From a virus: DNA of 11,751 nt. The stretch lies in UHGV virus genome UHGV-1581437; one strand, given 5' to 3'. Below, piece after piece: positions 4,237 to 10,772 of the stretch (within the stretch, counting starts at the first letter, position 1; the number at the start of each line of letters is the position of its first letter). Both the position numbers and the translations under genes were made by a program. A model generated the notes under the pieces. That model made no database searches. It saw nothing but the letters and a program-made list of their open reading frames with translations, and was not told the origin of the DNA.

Positions 4237-4253
4237 AGAATTATTAGAGCAAT
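4237..4253 (-). promoter_or_regulatory. C1 operator (Op99-type), minus orientation
   Basis: Minus strand reads ATTGCTCTAATAATTCT (15/17 to consensus ATTGCTCTAATAAATTT). Confidence 0.6.
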
Positions 4254-4313: not shown

Positions 4314-4340
4314 TTGACAATTGCTCTAATAAATTATAGT
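4314..4340 (+). promoter_or_regulatory. C1 operator (Op99-type) overlapping a sigma70-like promoter facing coi-c1
   Basis: TTGACA (4314-4319) followed directly by ATTGCTCTAATAAATTA (4320-4336, 16/17 to consensus) and TATAGT (4335-4340): a -35 and -10 with a 15-bp spacer fully occupied by the operator. Confidence 0.6.
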
Positions 4341-4574: not shown

Positions 4575-4784
4575 ATGGCTTTCATTCAACCAACCATCGA
4601 CGACGTTAGACATTGCTCTAACGCTTTATCTGTAGACCCTGCCGAAACCGACGCTGCCCGCGCCATTGCTGAACACTACTCAAAGATATCCAATCAGGAG
4701 TACCGCATCACCCAAGACGACCTGGATGACCTCACTGACACAATCGAATATCTCATGGCAACTAACCAGTTAGACTCACAATAA
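4575..4784 (+). CDS. coi: Coi (C1 inactivator), 69 aa
   Basis: 69-aa acidic ORF directly upstream of c1 and downstream of the operator cluster; GAGG lies 7 nt before the ATG. Size and position match P1 coi. Confidence 0.85.
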   Translation: MAFIQPTIDDVRHCSNALSVDPAETDAARAIAEHYSKISNQEYRITQDDLDDLTDTIEYLMATNQLDSQ

Positions 4785-4800
4785 ATGCACTAATAAATCT
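4784..4800 (+). promoter_or_regulatory. Weaker C1-operator-like 17-mer between coi and c1
   Basis: AATGCACTAATAAATCT (14/17 to consensus), followed by a TATAAT hexamer at 4820-4825. Confidence 0.35.
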
Positions 4801-4894: not shown

Positions 4895-5746
4895 ATGATA
4901 AATTATGTCTACGGCGAACAACTGTACCAGGAGTTCGTCAGCTTCAGGGATCTCTTTCTAAAAAAAGCTGTTGCACGCGCCCAACACGTTGATACAGCCA
5001 GCGACGGTCGTCCTGTACGCCCGGTTGTCGTTCTACCGTTCAAAGAAACTCACAGCATTCAGGCTGAAATTGATAAATGGACTTTAATGGCGCGGGAACT
5101 GGAACAGTACCCAGACCTCAATATCCCAAAGACTATTTTATATCCAGTGCCTAACATCCTTCGCGGTGTGCGCAAGGTTACAACTTATCAGACAGAAGCT
5201 GTGAACAGCGTCAACATGACCGCTGGCCGCATTATTCATCTGATTGATAAGGACATTCGCATCCAGAAAAGCGCAGGGATCAATGAGCACAGTGCGAAAT
5301 ACATAGAGAACCTGGAAGCAACAAAAGAGCTAATGAAGCAGTACCCGGAGGATGAAAAATTCCGTATGCGCGTACACGGCTTTAGCGAAACAATGCTGCG
5401 CGTCCATTACATTTCCAGTAGCCCTAACTACAATGATGGTAAATCAGTTAGTTACCATGTGCCGCTGTGTGGTGTGTTTATCTGCGATGAAACTCTCCGT
5501 GATGGAATCATCATCAACGGTGAATTCGAGAAAGCAAAATTTAGCCTTTATGACTCTATAGAACCGATCATCTGCGACCGCTGGCCGCAGGCAAAAATAT
5601 ATCGCCTGGCAGATATTGAAAATGTAAAAAAACAAATTGCCATCACTCGCGAAGAGAAAAAGGTCAAATCAGCCGCATCAGTTACGCGCAGCCGTAAAAC
5701 CAAGAAGGGGCAGCCAGTAAACGACAACCCCGAAAGCGCGCAATAA
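4895..5746 (+). CDS. c1: C1 repressor of lysis (primary immunity repressor), 283 aa
   Basis: 283-aa ORF with strong RBS (GGAGGAGG, 4883-4890). Length, position after coi and the surrounding operator array match P1 c1. Confidence 0.92.
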   Translation: MINYVYGEQLYQEFVSFRDLFLKKAVARAQHVDTASDGRPVRPVVVLPFKETHSIQAEIDKWTLMARELEQYPDLNIPKTILYPVPNILRGVRKVTTYQTEAVNSVNMTAGRIIHLIDKDIRIQKSAGINEHSAKYIENLEATKELMKQYPEDEKFRMRVHGFSETMLRVHYISSSPNYNDGKSVSYHVPLCGVFICDETLRDGIIINGEFEKAKFSLYDSIEPIICDRWPQAKIYRLADIENVKKQIAITREEKKVKSAASVTRSRKTKKGQPVNDNPESAQ

Positions 5747-5749
5747 ATT

Positions 5750-5771
5750 ATGCCCGGCATCAACCGGGCAT
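5750..5771. terminator. Bidirectional intrinsic-terminator-like hairpin between convergent c1 and the Ant-like gene
   Basis: ATGCCCGG-CATCAA-CCGGGCAT perfect 8-bp stem with T-rich flanks on both strands, sitting in the 32-bp gap between two convergent stop codons. Confidence 0.6.
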
Positions 5772-5778
5772 TCTTCCA

Positions 5779-6891
5779 TTATTCAGCCGCCACCGGTTTT
5801 AACAAGCCAGCATCGAGCAGTTTACGCGTCAACCACTGCTGGCCTTTACCCGTTAATTGAGGCGTCAACCGTATCTGGTAGCCATCTTCATCATCCAGCA
5901 CCACTTCTTTCACCGTGAAATACCCCGCGTTGATGTACTGCTGGAACGGCACATTTTTACGTCCACCGGACGCTATCAGGATGCCGTTCTCCCGTAACCA
6001 GACAAACAGCGCGTTTTGCTTAAGTCCAACAACCTTTGCAAAATTCCCAATCAGGATCCCTTTAGCTACTGATACCCGGTCGGCAAAATCGACTTTAGGA
6101 GCGGCGGCCACCAGCTGCTGATTTAGCTGGTGGGCTTTCTGTTCCAAAAGCTGCTTTTGTTCAGCCAGTTCGGCAGCCAGGCGCAGAGCTTCTGGAAGCG
6201 TCTGGGGGATTGCAACCGGTTGCTGTTCTTTTTGCCGGAAGTAGCTGTCTTCCAGTTTTTCAAAGAATGCCCATGCTTCATTTGTGTCCACGATCTTAGA
6301 CATGCGTGCAGCGCCGCGCTCTGTCCAGAGTGTAAGGCTTCTGGCGTTCTTACCAACAGAGTAACTTCCGGTTACTCTGTTCTTAAATTCTCTTAATTTT
6401 AAACCAGTTAGAAGAAAGTAATGCTTACCTTCTTCAAAGCGGTCAAGGTTGCGAGACAAATTGTTGCGAATATTGGCTTCATCGACCCCATACCCTCTAG
6501 CAAGAGTTTCGGTTGTCACGACACGTACTCCCTGCCATTCCAGAACGGGAATTTCATCCGGCTGATTCTGAACAACCACCAGTTCCGATTCCTGAACTGA
6601 AGGTGCATAAATTTTTTCTGATTTAACGTTAGTTGCTTTCATTCTGTGTGCCTCCTTGCGTGCTTCGGCTGCGACGGTTGCGTAATTCAGATGACCCTGT
6701 TCGAGCAGGTATTCACGGATATCGGTTAGCAGAATGCGGTGAACCGCGTGTTTGTCCTTTCTCCGGTAAAGTTGTTTGGTGATCATGAAGTAGTTGGCAA
6801 TAACGCCCGGTATATCCCTGGTACTGATACAGGCAGTGTGCTGTTCAATTGCCTCGATCATCTCTTCACGGGTGACTAATGACGTTCTCAT
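5779..6891 (-). CDS. Ant-like antirepressor (370 aa) with an ORF6N/Bro-N-like central domain and a KilAC-type C-terminal domain; in-frame internal start at 6642 would give a 287-aa isoform
   Basis: Strong RBS (minus AGGAGGG 4 nt before ATG). Central segment LEWQGVRVVTTETLARGYGVDEANIRNNLSRNLDRFEEGKHYFLLTG...LWTERGA...FFEKLEDSYF has the ORF6N pattern; the C-terminus (VDFADRVSVAKGILIGNFAKVVGLKQNALFVWLRENGIL...) is KilAC-like. Domain calls are from motif memory, not a search. Confidence 0.85.
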   Translation of the reverse strand: MRTSLVTREEMIEAIEQHTACISTRDIPGVIANYFMITKQLYRRKDKHAVHRILLTDIREYLLEQGHLNYATVAAEARKEAHRMKATNVKSEKIYAPSVQESELVVVQNQPDEIPVLEWQGVRVVTTETLARGYGVDEANIRNNLSRNLDRFEEGKHYFLLTGLKLREFKNRVTGSYSVGKNARSLTLWTERGAARMSKIVDTNEAWAFFEKLEDSYFRQKEQQPVAIPQTLPEALRLAAELAEQKQLLEQKAHQLNQQLVAAAPKVDFADRVSVAKGILIGNFAKVVGLKQNALFVWLRENGILIASGGRKNVPFQQYINAGYFTVKEVVLDDEDGYQIRLTPQLTGKGQQWLTRKLLDAGLLKPVAAE

Positions 6892-7109
6892 AGTCCCTCC
6901 TGAGCAGAAGCGTTAACAGGGAGGCACCAGTAACTGAGAGAATTGCGCGAATCGGTAGAAAAGCGGGCAGAGAAAATACAGGGAGCATCCGGAAGCTGAG
7001 AACGTGCCTCATCTTCTGTCGGTGCAATAACGAAGTGATAGTGACGTTTTTGGCAGGAGTAAAAGCGCCAGATAAATTCAGGATGAGCAGGGGTAGGGAT
7101 AGTAGCCAC
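6888..7109 (-). CDS. Icd-like small protein (73 aa) translationally coupled to the Ant-like gene
   Basis: GTG start 8 nt downstream of a consensus SD (minus AAGGAGG, plus 7118-7124). Its stop overlaps the ant ATG as ATGA (6888-6891). Size and overlap mirror P1 icd-ant1 (73-codon icd, as I recall). Confidence 0.55.
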   Translation of the reverse strand: MATIPTPAHPEFIWRFYSCQKRHYHFVIAPTEDEARSQLPDAPCIFSARFSTDSRNSLSYWCLPVNASAQEGL

Positions 7110-7117
7110 AATGGCAG

Positions 7118-7141
7118 CCTCCTTTTGCTAATTTAAGGAGC
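7118..7141 (-). promoter_or_regulatory. RBS-sequestering hairpin for the Icd-like ORF
   Basis: Minus strand GCTCCTT-AAATTAGCAA-AAGGAGGC: an upstream anti-SD (CTCCTT) can pair with the SD (AAGGAG) of the small ORF. Confidence 0.4.
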
Positions 7142-7293
7142 TACCGCGTGAGGTCTCAATCTCAATGGCGGTAGCACTGACTGGGTTGAGACTACCGGCG
7201 CAAAAGGGAACCGGCCTGCCTTTCGGCAGCCCAGCCAGCACTACCATTGATCTCTGAGCTAAACGCTACGTATGGCTGTGCGATGGCATGACA

Positions 7294-7322
7294 CAAAAAA
7301 AGACGCTTTTGGCGTCTGTGTC
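7294..7322 (-). terminator. Strong rho-independent terminator on the minus strand inside the module leader
   Basis: Minus strand GACAC-AGACGC-CAAAA-GCGTCT-TTTTTTT-GTGTC: GC-rich stem followed by seven T, with an outer GACAC/GTGTC clamp. Confidence 0.6.
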
Positions 7323-7430
7323 GCCTTTTGCATTATCCGGGGTCTCAATCCCGGCACCCGTTTTACTGAGGTGCCTGATAAGCATAAACCGAAAATGCCT
7401 CAAGGCGCAAGAGGTCAGGTTCAATGTAAC
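7294..7430 (-). ncRNA. Candidate C4-like antisense regulatory RNA (about 120-135 nt) running from the operator-overlapped promoter to the terminator
   Basis: Promoter-like elements on the minus strand (TTGTGT, 17-bp spacer, TACATT) next to a C1-operator-like site. Hairpin CCGGG-AUUGAGAC-CCCGG (plus 7337-7354). Terminator at 7294-7322. The loop is complementary to a downstream leader site. No protein-coding potential. Confidence 0.35.
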
Positions 7431-7448
7431 ATCGGTAGTTAAAAAACA

Positions 7449-7465
7449 CAATTTATTAGAGCAAA
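7449..7465 (-). promoter_or_regulatory. C1-operator-like 17-mer at the head of the sRNA/icd-like/ant-like module
   Basis: Minus strand TTTGCTCTAATAAATTG (15/17 to consensus), starting 4 nt after the pacB stop and overlapping the candidate promoter. Confidence 0.55.
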
Positions 7466-7468
7466 TAT

Positions 7469-8953
7469 TCATTCATTAAGCCATGCCAGAGCTTCATCAA
7501 CCTGCGCTTCGTCTTCGACGCTAAGCACTTCGTCCTGGGGAACATAATCCGCCAGCATAGCGAAACAATATGTATCCCAATGGTCTGGTGAGTGCAGGTT
7601 GAGTTTTTTCTTCATATCCTCCTTACTCATCACCTTCCATTGACCTGCGGAGTTAATCCCTACAGGGATTTTCGACGCTTCCTCAATAGTTTCATTACCC
7701 TTATCCAGTCTCATACGACCAGATTTTACGGCCTCTGCGGCTTGAACGTTGGCATAAGCACGTTTATCAAAGTACAGGCTCTTATCTTCACGGCTATGCA
7801 TCTTTTTACCCCAGCGTATACGCTGTACGGTAATACCATAATACTCGTACATCAGATCCGCCGTTGCTTTACCCAGGCCATCGCCGTCTATCGCTATGGT
7901 GATATTTGGGAATCGCTCAGGATTACATTCTGCGAAAATTTTGGCGGCAAGCTGCGTTTCTGTAACGTCTGTGTATTCCAGCATTCGATAGTTGATTACA
8001 CGGCGTTTATTTCGCTGGCCGGACACCATCATGATATTGATAACGGACTTATCCCGTCCCGTACCACCAGCAACGTCCACACATGCAAGCCAGCCCCATC
8101 CTTTTGCAATCTTGACTTTCCGCCGCGTTGCACGTTCAACCTCATCACGTCCAAGAAGGAAGCCATCCTGTGATTTAGGGAATAGGCCGCGTACCTTAAT
8201 CATGTACATAGGGTTATCACGCCCGCCGTACTCCGCCAGCTTCATTTTGATAAATGCTGGCGTTACCAACGGTGATTCCTCACTGTTAAGCGTGATCGCC
8301 GTATAAACGCCATCAGGGTTACCAGGACGCTTGGCCAGTTTATGGTGTGTATCGTAGAAATAGCCGCTTGGGCGTGTAGGCTGTGACAGCAATAAGATGC
8401 GGTTATCCTGTCCGGTAAGAGCACCGGTGATGATACCGAAAGCTCTATCACTGACACCGGAGGCTTCATCGATAATATACAGAAGATGATCTGCGTGTTC
8501 ACCGGCGAGAGCTTCTTCACTTCCCAGACGAAAGCCCTTCGGTACTACAGTCCATACACCTTTACCAGTAATCTCATAGAAAGCGGTTTCTGTCAGAACA
8601 AAATAATCAGCAAGCCATGGGAAACGGCTGGTGGCAGTAGCCCAGTTTATCTTGATGTACTTGAATATACCGGTCATTACCTGCTGAATTTTGTTCGCAA
8701 CGATAATGGCACGGGCACCTGGATACATGATTATGAACAACATGATCATGATAGAAGTCATGTCTGATTTCCCGGTACCGTGACCAGACGAAACAGATGT
8801 CTTGCTACCCTGTTCCTGCACAGACTCAATAATCAGATCCTGCTGCCAGGTAGGTGTTTTGCCGAACAAAACATCAGCGGCCGCAATCCAGTCATAACGA
8901 TATAGCGCCACCAGCTCGCGCCAACGTGGATCCGTTACGCAACTTCTGGCCAT
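7469..8953 (-). CDS. pacB: Terminase large subunit PacB (494 aa)
   Basis: 494-aa ORF with a Walker A-like motif (SSGHGTGKS) and acidic nuclease-type motifs. Its ATG overlaps the pacA stop (TAATG). Size and order match P1 pacB. Confidence 0.92.
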
Positions 8954-10755: not shown

Positions 10756-10772
10756 CAATACATTAGAGCAAT
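10756..10772 (-). promoter_or_regulatory. C1-operator-like 17-mer overlapping the lpa promoter
   Basis: Minus strand ATTGCTCTAATGTATTG (13/17 to consensus). TTGCTC inside the operator serves as -35, then a 17-bp spacer, then TTTAAT as -10, all upstream of lpa. Confidence 0.6.

Follow-up and report, generated by a model that had tools for sequence, protein, structure and literature searches.

Two in-frame proteins, of 370 and 287 amino acids, are most likely made from the ant gene of the virus genome UHGV-1581437, the shorter one starting at an internal ATG behind its own Shine-Dalgarno (SD) sequence. The analysis covered a stretch of 11,751 nucleotides, hereafter called the window, and it is highly probable that this stretch holds a complete second immI-type operon whose ant message yields both proteins in the manner of phage P1.

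A second immI-type operon between pacB and c1

The window is a P1-like phage-plasmid. Over the 1.7 kb around the internal start, its identity was 99.2% with Escherichia phage JL22 and 94.8% with RCS47, both of which are P1-like (Punavirus) phage-plasmids. JL22 and RCS47 have immI in two places each, the P1-type immI being kept elsewhere in the phage. The features around ant are the following.

7469..8953, minus strand: pacB, upstream of the operon.
7449..7465, minus strand: C1-operator-like 17-mer TTTGCTCTAATAAATTG, first element of the operon and adjacent to the end of pacB, matching the consensus at 15/17 positions.
7296..7374, minus strand: isrK-like RNA (Rfam RF01394, 58.2 bits, gathering score 50).
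7164..7251, minus strand: C4 antisense RNA (Rfam RF01695, 75 bits, E 1.5e-13, full length).
7121..7159, minus strand: a2/b2 sites in the leader of icd-ant, assigned as C4 targets by complementarity to the C4 loops.
7124..7118, minus strand: icd SD AAGGAGG, 8 nt before the icd GTG.
6888..7109, minus strand: icd homologue of 73 amino acids with a GTG start, its stop overlapping the ant1 start in ATGA.
5750..5771, minus strand: terminator-like hairpin immediately behind the stop codon of ant, in the gap that separates ant from the convergent c1.
4895..5746, plus strand: c1 repressor gene of 283 amino acids, convergent with ant.

The C4 RNA match lay well above the gathering score of its family (75 bits obtained vs 45). 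Its loop b' is CCTTTTGC (7207..7200) and its loop a' is GTCTCAA (7192..7186). Pairing with the targets, read here from sequence complementarity, would involve a2 (TTGAGAC, 7159..7153), which is the exact reverse complement of loop a', and b2 (GCAAAAGG, 7128..7121), which is the exact reverse complement of loop b' and overlaps the icd SD. The sites are arranged like the a2/b2 sites annotated in P1, but the loop and target sequences are unlike those of P1, so that the module would have a specificity of its own. Further copies of both targets, TTGAGAC (7348..7342) and GCAAAAGG (7331..7324), are carried by the isrK-like element, which ends in a terminator-like hairpin and a U-run.

The operator-like 17-mer has two mismatches to the consensus ATTGCTCTAATAAATTT, and five such sites were counted in the window vs 0.05 expected. 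Its position corresponds to Oc4/Op51 of P1, where Oc4 reads AATGCTCTAATAAATTT; a simple scan of the site (7449..7465) for a promoter found none. The icd frame is as long as P1 icd (1590-1811), which likewise has a 4-nt overlap with its ant1 (1808), and many plasmids annotate the homologue as an Icd-like protein. The position homologous to c1 carries c1 in RCS47 and C1.100 in JL22 according to the record annotation, and the antirepressor presumably acts on the C1 repressor.

Because a C4 RNA, complementary targets, icd, ant and an operator-like site occur in the P1-type order, the window appears to hold a complete immI-type operon of which ant is the last gene. The C4 RNA, the ATGA overlap of icd, the complementary targets and the C1-operator-like site also bear out the analogy with immI that had been drawn earlier in the sequence-only reading.

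Anatomy of the nested start

The sequence elements that define the two frames of ant are the following.

6901..6896, minus strand: SD AGGAGG of ant1, preceding the 370-codon frame.
5779..6891, minus strand: ant1-type long open reading frame with an ATG start, 370 amino acids, 42.0 kDa.
6657..6651, minus strand: internal SD AAGGAGG for ant2, encoded by Lys79-Glu80-Ala81 and invariant in 112/112 distinct intact sequences.
6650..6643, minus strand: spacer CACACAGA of 8 nt from the SD to the ATG, read from the sequence.
5779..6642, minus strand: nested ant2-type frame, 287 amino acids, 32.3 kDa, from the ATG at 6642..6640 to the stop common with ant1.

The codons around the site on the minus strand read GCC GAA GCA CGC AAG GAG GCA CAC AGA ATG AAA GCA ACT AAC GTT AAA. 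This reading confirmed what the sequence-only reading had described, namely AAGGAGG (6651-6657) located 8 nt before an in-frame ATG (6642..6640) in the protein context ARKEAHR-MKATNVK. The distance from 6891 to 6642 is 249 nt, or 83 codons, and the internal ATG is thus in-frame codon 84. The lengths of 370 and 287 amino acids were also correct, and the masses, earlier put at about 42 and 32 kDa, were recalculated as 42.0 and 32.3 kDa.

Counting of the motifs made only a modest case for the site. AAGGAGG by itself was unremarkable, with three copies in the window vs 1.09 expected and at least three in 15/200 shuffles, while AGGAGG-N4-10-ATG was present three times vs 0.56 expected, a number reached in 5/200 shuffles. 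The three copies of the latter are the start sites of c1 (4895) and ant1 (6891) and codon 84 of ant; no other in-frame internal start codon of ant has an SD match of more than 5 nt. The earlier statement that such an SD is unlikely to be due to chance thus drew only modest support from motif counts; it is homology to P1 and conservation among homologues that make the nested start more than a chance occurrence.

A scan of the Ant1-specific region for a sigma-70-like promoter found none, and an mRNA common to ant1 and ant2 is therefore likely. The predicted local accessibility of the ant2 SD ranked at percentile 61 for the window and at percentile 83 for P1, values that are moderate and not discriminating, whereas the ant1 SD was predicted to be almost fully paired in both. 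This predicted pattern would fit, weakly, a coupled initiation at ant1 and an independent one at ant2.

The internal start corresponds to the ant2 start of phage P1

In the P1 record NC_005856, ant1 (1808-2851 of locus L001) and ant2 (2057-2851) end at one stop codon and begin 249 nt (83 codons) apart, just as in the window, and the record notes that the product 'antagonizes C1 repression by formation of Ant1/Ant2/C1 complex'. The P1 ant2 start reads AAGGAGG-CACATAGA-ATG and the one of the window AAGGAGG-CACACAGA-ATG. The original P1 deposit (X15639) carries a ribosome-binding site feature at 774-780 and an ant2 CDS from 789, with the same gap of 8 nt. The 18-mer at the ant2 start, AAGGAGGCACATAGAATG in P1 and AAGGAGGCACACAGAATG in the window, is identical at 17/18 positions and is the best-conserved 18-nt stretch between the two genes in the region from -30 to +300.

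BLASTP of the window Ant against P1 Ant1 showed 57% identity (E 4e-131). Residues 1-84 align without gaps to residues 1-84 of P1 Ant1, Met84 falling on Met84, so that the comparison with the P1 ant1/ant2 starts proposed in the sequence-only reading came out in its favour; this part of the alignment ends in ...AAEARKEAHRM in the window and ...AAEIRKEAHRM in P1, the middle of the proteins is diverged, and in the KilAC C-terminus the two hardly differ. Identity over the first 83 residues is about 61%. Over codons 1-83, the DNA identity is 66%, with pS of 0.72 (near saturation), pN of 0.22 and pN/pS of 0.31, and the Ant1-specific segment is therefore a real, constrained coding region.

The internal SD and ATG of the window are thus the exact counterpart of the P1 ant2 start. 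The match at codon 84 and the equal SD and spacing support the proposal of nested isoforms analogous to P1 Ant1/Ant2, both of which are probably synthesised. The comparison of the predicted masses with P1 figures of 42 and 32 kDa stood less well: the nested frames are indeed present in P1, and the agreement in mass is partly a coincidence, given that the annotated P1 products (347/264 amino acids) calculate to 38.7 and 29.0 kDa.

Conservation of the ant2 start across homologues

Two viral-contig scans, one species-genome scan and reference phages yielded a sample of 170 loci, many of them on IMG/VR contigs that both viral-contig scans found and that carry window-type and P1-type copies. The 170 loci represent 116 distinct DNA sequences, and the 112 with an intact N-terminal part were analysed. 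They form two clades, window-type and P1-type, with about 61% amino-acid identity between them and synonymous sites near saturation.

The homologue family is narrow. When residues 1-83 were compared exhaustively by HMMER with 1.84 billion representative proteins, no distant relatives came up and the matches were limited to 16 clusters, which are essentially P1-like Ant proteins and a small chromosomal protein of E. coli/E. albertii; for this reason SD conservation is testable within the two clades only. The profile scan of species genomes gave six loci, all of Escherichia type, and the two of them in a Bacillota-labelled bin are probably a binning artefact. The search with the full-length protein revealed no diversity among the matches listed, with at least 120 homologues, all 97-99% identical, which made no alignment suitable for predicting the structure, and the search with residues 1-96 returned short fragments only, with the rare variants P0017, P0032 and P0037 and the chromosomal stand-alone homologue.

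Within the 330 nt from -30 to +300, AAGGAGGC was the only invariant run of at least 8 nt among the 112 sequences. An invariant run of this length anywhere in the region is not unusual (shuffle P = 0.30), while the chance of invariance for this particular 8-nt stretch is roughly 0.0014, a value that assumes independent sites although the sequences are related. It is thus the location of the invariant 8-mer on the SD, and not its existence, that is informative. The SD-to-start distance was 8 nt in 112/112, whereas the bases of the spacer region vary (CAC/CAT/CGC, AGA/AGG/ATA, GCA/GCG). Codon 84 was ATG in all but seven distinct sequences, which are P1-type and have GTG; this exchange replaces Met by Val in Ant1 and keeps a start codon, and it may represent one evolutionary event. 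Conservation of the SD-ATG pair in homologues had been set beforehand as the refuting test, and the pair (with ATG or GTG) was kept in 112/112.

These data were weighed against the reading that a single 370-amino-acid product is made, AAGGAGG being a by-product of the conserved Lys-Glu-Ala and Met84 an ordinary internal methionine. RKEAHRM is indeed kept as protein in both clades, so that protein constraint could explain part of the conservation of the motif, and the argument at the nucleotide level is carried by two synonymous sites only: Lys79 is always encoded by AAG and Glu80 always by GAG (112/112 sequences), at a rate of invariant third positions of only 18% of codons. Single codons with an invariant third position do occur elsewhere, such as Glu76 (GAA in 112/112), and database annotation gives one CDS per gene, the long form alone being annotated in all of the at least 120 homologues among the matches listed. 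A single product nevertheless leaves several observations unaccounted for. Codons 79-80 are the only adjacent codons, besides codons 1-2, in which both third positions are invariant, and they lie in the only invariant 8-mer. AAG and GAG are the rarer synonyms in E. coli codon usage. The sole substitution at codon 84 keeps the capacity to start, and in P1 the original depositors marked the homologous site as the start of ant2 and entered a ribosome-binding site for it. A single product is therefore considered quite improbable.

It is also very improbable that the internal SD-like sequence is no start at all and serves as a pause site or as a standby or structure element for elongating ribosomes or the mRNA. 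The motif does lie at the junction between a segment predicted to be helical (1-83) and one predicted to be coil (84-116), at low confidence, but a role of this kind does not explain why a start codon is kept 8 nt away in all 112 sequences or why ATG is replaced by GTG. Such an element would be compatible with internal initiation and not exclusive of it, and two products are indicated by P1 genetics and annotation.

Exceptions, domains and modularity

Production of two isoforms, the preferred reading, is accompanied by a few exceptions in the sample. P0017 (E. albertii) and P0168 are fragmentary proteins without Met84, carrying small deletions, and the ant2 start is thus dispensable in some copies. 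The Ant2 frame is intact in four copies with a damaged long frame: the Ant1-specific part is frameshifted in L075, a stop codon replaces the ant1 start in L091, a stop is present at codon 65 in L149, and L068 has Phe as its first codon. Decay of the second ant, as a duplicate of the canonical one in immI whose motif is inherited and unused, would agree with the P1-type immI kept elsewhere in such phages and with the frameshift or stops in the Ant1-specific part of L075, L091 and L149, but is extremely improbable for a module in which the frame is intact in 112/116 distinct sequences, pN/pS in codons 1-83 is 0.31, and an own C4 RNA with matched, different targets, an own icd and an operator-like site point to a maintained, heteroimmune unit.

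The long protein of the window is composed of the following parts.

6643..6891, minus strand: Ant1-specific N-terminal segment, residues 1-83, pN/pS 0.31, found in P1-like elements and few others.
6292-6546, minus strand: ORF6N domain, residues 116-200 (Pfam).
5815-6120, minus strand: KilAC/ANT domain, residues 258-359 (Pfam, ANT 6.5e-31).

A search for a Pfam family matching residues 1-83 gave no match. P1 Ant1 has ANT as its only Pfam domain, and the gene of the window is thus an Ant1/Ant2 homologue in which the central domain has been exchanged. Residues 85-100 are poorly conserved and nearly neutral (pN/pS 0.75). A single-sequence AlphaFold model of the 370 amino acids, which was taken as a hint of secondary structure only (mean pLDDT 39), showed four helices in residues 1-83 and coil up to about residue 116.

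Natural recombinants join at the same place. In L077-L083, residues 1-86 of the window type are fused to a P1-type middle domain, and the mosaic joint falls just after the Ant2 start (Met84), while P0167 (467 amino acids) has P1-type N-terminal and middle parts followed by ORF6N and KilAC. Because residues 85-100 are variable, ORF6N starts only at 116 and these recombinants join after Met84, Ant2 begins at the head of a variable linker, which is a module boundary.

Two or three immI modules can co-reside in one phage-plasmid. A further reading, of low probability, is that the Ant2 start also serves as a recombination joint, the 83-residue segment, with the SD in its last codons, and the Ant2 body being swapped as separate cassettes among co-resident immI modules whose Ant1 and Ant2 could then cross-assemble. 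If this is true, cassette exchange and cross-assembly could create new antirepressor or immunity specificities.

Proposed mechanism

In the lysogen, C1 bound to the putative operator and C4 RNA paired with a2/b2 across the icd ribosome-binding site would silence icd-ant. Once expressed, ribosomes translating icd would reinitiate at the ATGA overlap and produce the 370-amino-acid Ant1-type protein, and the prediction that the ant1 SD is almost fully paired fits the need for such icd-ant1 coupling. The internal AAGGAGG (6657..6651) would recruit further ribosomes, which initiate at the ATG at 6642 and give the 287-amino-acid Ant2-type protein, a putative self-contained antirepressor body of ORF6N and KilAC that lacks the first 83 residues. 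As in P1, Ant1 and Ant2 would then assemble, and their complex would bind the C1 repressor and inactivate it; the association of both products and their action on C1 are inferred from the analogy with P1.

Comparison with known systems

The nested Ant1/Ant2 design has long been known for P1 and P7. As in the immI of these phages, the order in the window is a C1 operator (a putative one in the window), C4 targets, c4 RNA, a2/b2, icd and ant, the icd stop and ant1 start overlap in ATGA, and ant2 starts at codon 84 behind AAGGAGG and 8 nt. The two differ in site, immI of P1/P7 being located between sim and kilA and the operon of the window between pacB and c1. They also differ in the C4 loops, which are CTGTCAA and TCACTAAC in P1 and GTCTCAA (a') and CCTTTTGC (b') in the window, and in the targets, which are TTGACAG and GTTAGTGA in P1 and TTGAGAC and GCAAAAGG in the window. 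The upstream targets of P1 lie in a c4-a1b1 motif (RF03163), whereas the window has an isrK-like element there and RCS47 has isrK. The middle domain of the P1 protein has no Pfam match while that of the window is ORF6N, and the products are 347/264 amino acids in P1 and 370/287 in the window. Published accounts portray Ant as a dimer of Ant1 and Ant2 which binds C1, and place its genes in a c4-icd-ant1/2 operon under the control of C1 and C4 (PMC8198154; PMC8546580).

The insertion of ant between pacB and c1 in RCS47, pTZ20_1P and JL22 was described by Venturini et al. (2019; PMC6906374), and it is the same insertion as in the window. The records of these three elements differ from the present reading in giving one long CDS only, which JL22 names 'roi, DNA binding protein'; neither JL22 nor RCS47 has an annotation for the c4 RNA or for the nested start of ant2, and RCS47 has none for icd. 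The isrK - orf45 - anrP arrangement of Gifsy-1 in Salmonella (PMC4825925) likewise has an isrK-type RNA, a short open reading frame and an AUGA overlap, with translational coupling there. It differs in that no nested second start is described, and the window has a C4 RNA and icd between the isrK-like element and ant.

Both the nested Ant1/Ant2 design and the extra ant between pacB and c1 were thus already known, and the finding adds no new principle. Its novelty is modest: a second, heteroimmune module has kept the nested start base for base although its central domain was swapped, and this start is unannotated in JL22, RCS47 and all of the at least 120 homologues listed. The gene, annotated as a 370-amino-acid 'KilAC domain protein' or 'Roi', should read ant1/ant2 with c4 and icd upstream, in a clade of widespread P1-like phage-plasmids, many of which carry resistance genes. 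One element can hold several heteroimmune immI modules, and their interplay is the biological question that this raises. The survival of the nested start through a domain swap and in lineages near saturation argues for a functional need for two isoforms and against their being an oddity of P1.

Recombinant and disrupted ant copies

In four natural copies of ant (L075, L091, L149 and L068), the Ant1-specific part is broken while the Ant2 frame and the Ant2 SD are intact; the lesions across these loci comprise a frameshift, replacement of the ant1 start by a stop codon, a stop at codon 65 and Phe as the first codon. The converse was found in the protein fragments P0017 and P0168, where small deletions removed Met84. 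In addition, loci L077-L083 (e.g. L077:2501-3556) are recombinant genes in which a middle domain of the P1-type clade is joined onto residues 1-86 of the window-type clade, and thus the mosaic junction lies just past the Ant2 start codon.

Sequences similar to the Ant1-specific segment also occur outside ant. Residues 2-69 are matched with 72% identity by P0025, a stand-alone protein of the E. coli chromosome (L171:4001-4417) without an attached Ant2 body, which is encoded within a chromosomal element, beside ProQ-like, SSB and DUF927 genes; its true start is probably downstream of the start of the called ORF. The 695-aa protein P0170 has seven repeats that resemble residues 19-52 of Ant1 (28% identity, E 1e-10), and a check of P0170 for Pfam families gave no convincing match.

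Distribution of c4-icd-ant modules

Single phage-plasmid contigs of IMG/VR carry two or three c4-icd-ant modules, each with its own C4 RNA, and the L013/L071 pair is arranged head to head:

651053023_000001: L013, L071, L092
2703718869_000013: L016, L082, L125
646311924_000007: L068, L073, L094

Both ant types, 96% and 60% identical to the query, were also found on short contigs (L085 and L088) in a metagenome bin with the label Bacillota. Most likely, a binning artefact placed E. coli phage-plasmid DNA in this bin.

Operator-like sites and neighboring features

Scanning the window for 17-mers with up to three mismatches to the P1 C1-operator consensus ATTGCTCTAATAAATTT revealed five sites, where 0.05 are expected by chance:

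4237-4253 (-), C1-operator-like 17-mer
4320-4336 (+), C1-operator-like 17-mer
4784-4800 (+), C1-operator-like 17-mer
7449-7465 (-), C1-operator-like 17-mer
10756-10772 (-), C1-operator-like 17-mer

Three are upstream of c1/coi, the fourth stands at the head of the c4-icd-ant operon, and the last lies at 10.76 kb. Other features of this region are:

7296-7374 (-), isrK-like RNA (Rfam RF01394, 58 bits)
7266-7472 (-), 68-aa ORF, annotated in phage JL22 as hypothetical gp120
5750-5771, G+C-rich hairpin lying where the convergent genes ant and c1 meet; on the minus strand it was flagged as resembling a terminator

Both the isrK-like RNA and the operator-like site at 7449-7465 overlap the 68-aa ORF, which is unlikely to be a real gene. 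The hairpin may serve as terminator for both the ant and c1 transcription units.

Comparison of the isrK-like RNA with known systems

In P1, the position held in the window by the isrK-like RNA is occupied by the c4-a1b1 motif, which the IMG/VR multi-module copies likewise have in place of an isrK-like RNA. Inside the isrK-like RNA, TTGAGAC (7348..7342) and GCAAAAGG (7331..7324) are second copies of the C4 targets of the window module. Because these targets recur there, the RNA looks, from its sequence, like a functional counterpart of a1/b1. The layout of isrK-like RNA, icd and ant is similar to that of the Gifsy-1 isrK-orf45-anrP locus, which has an AUGA overlap ahead of its antirepressor gene (PMC4825925).
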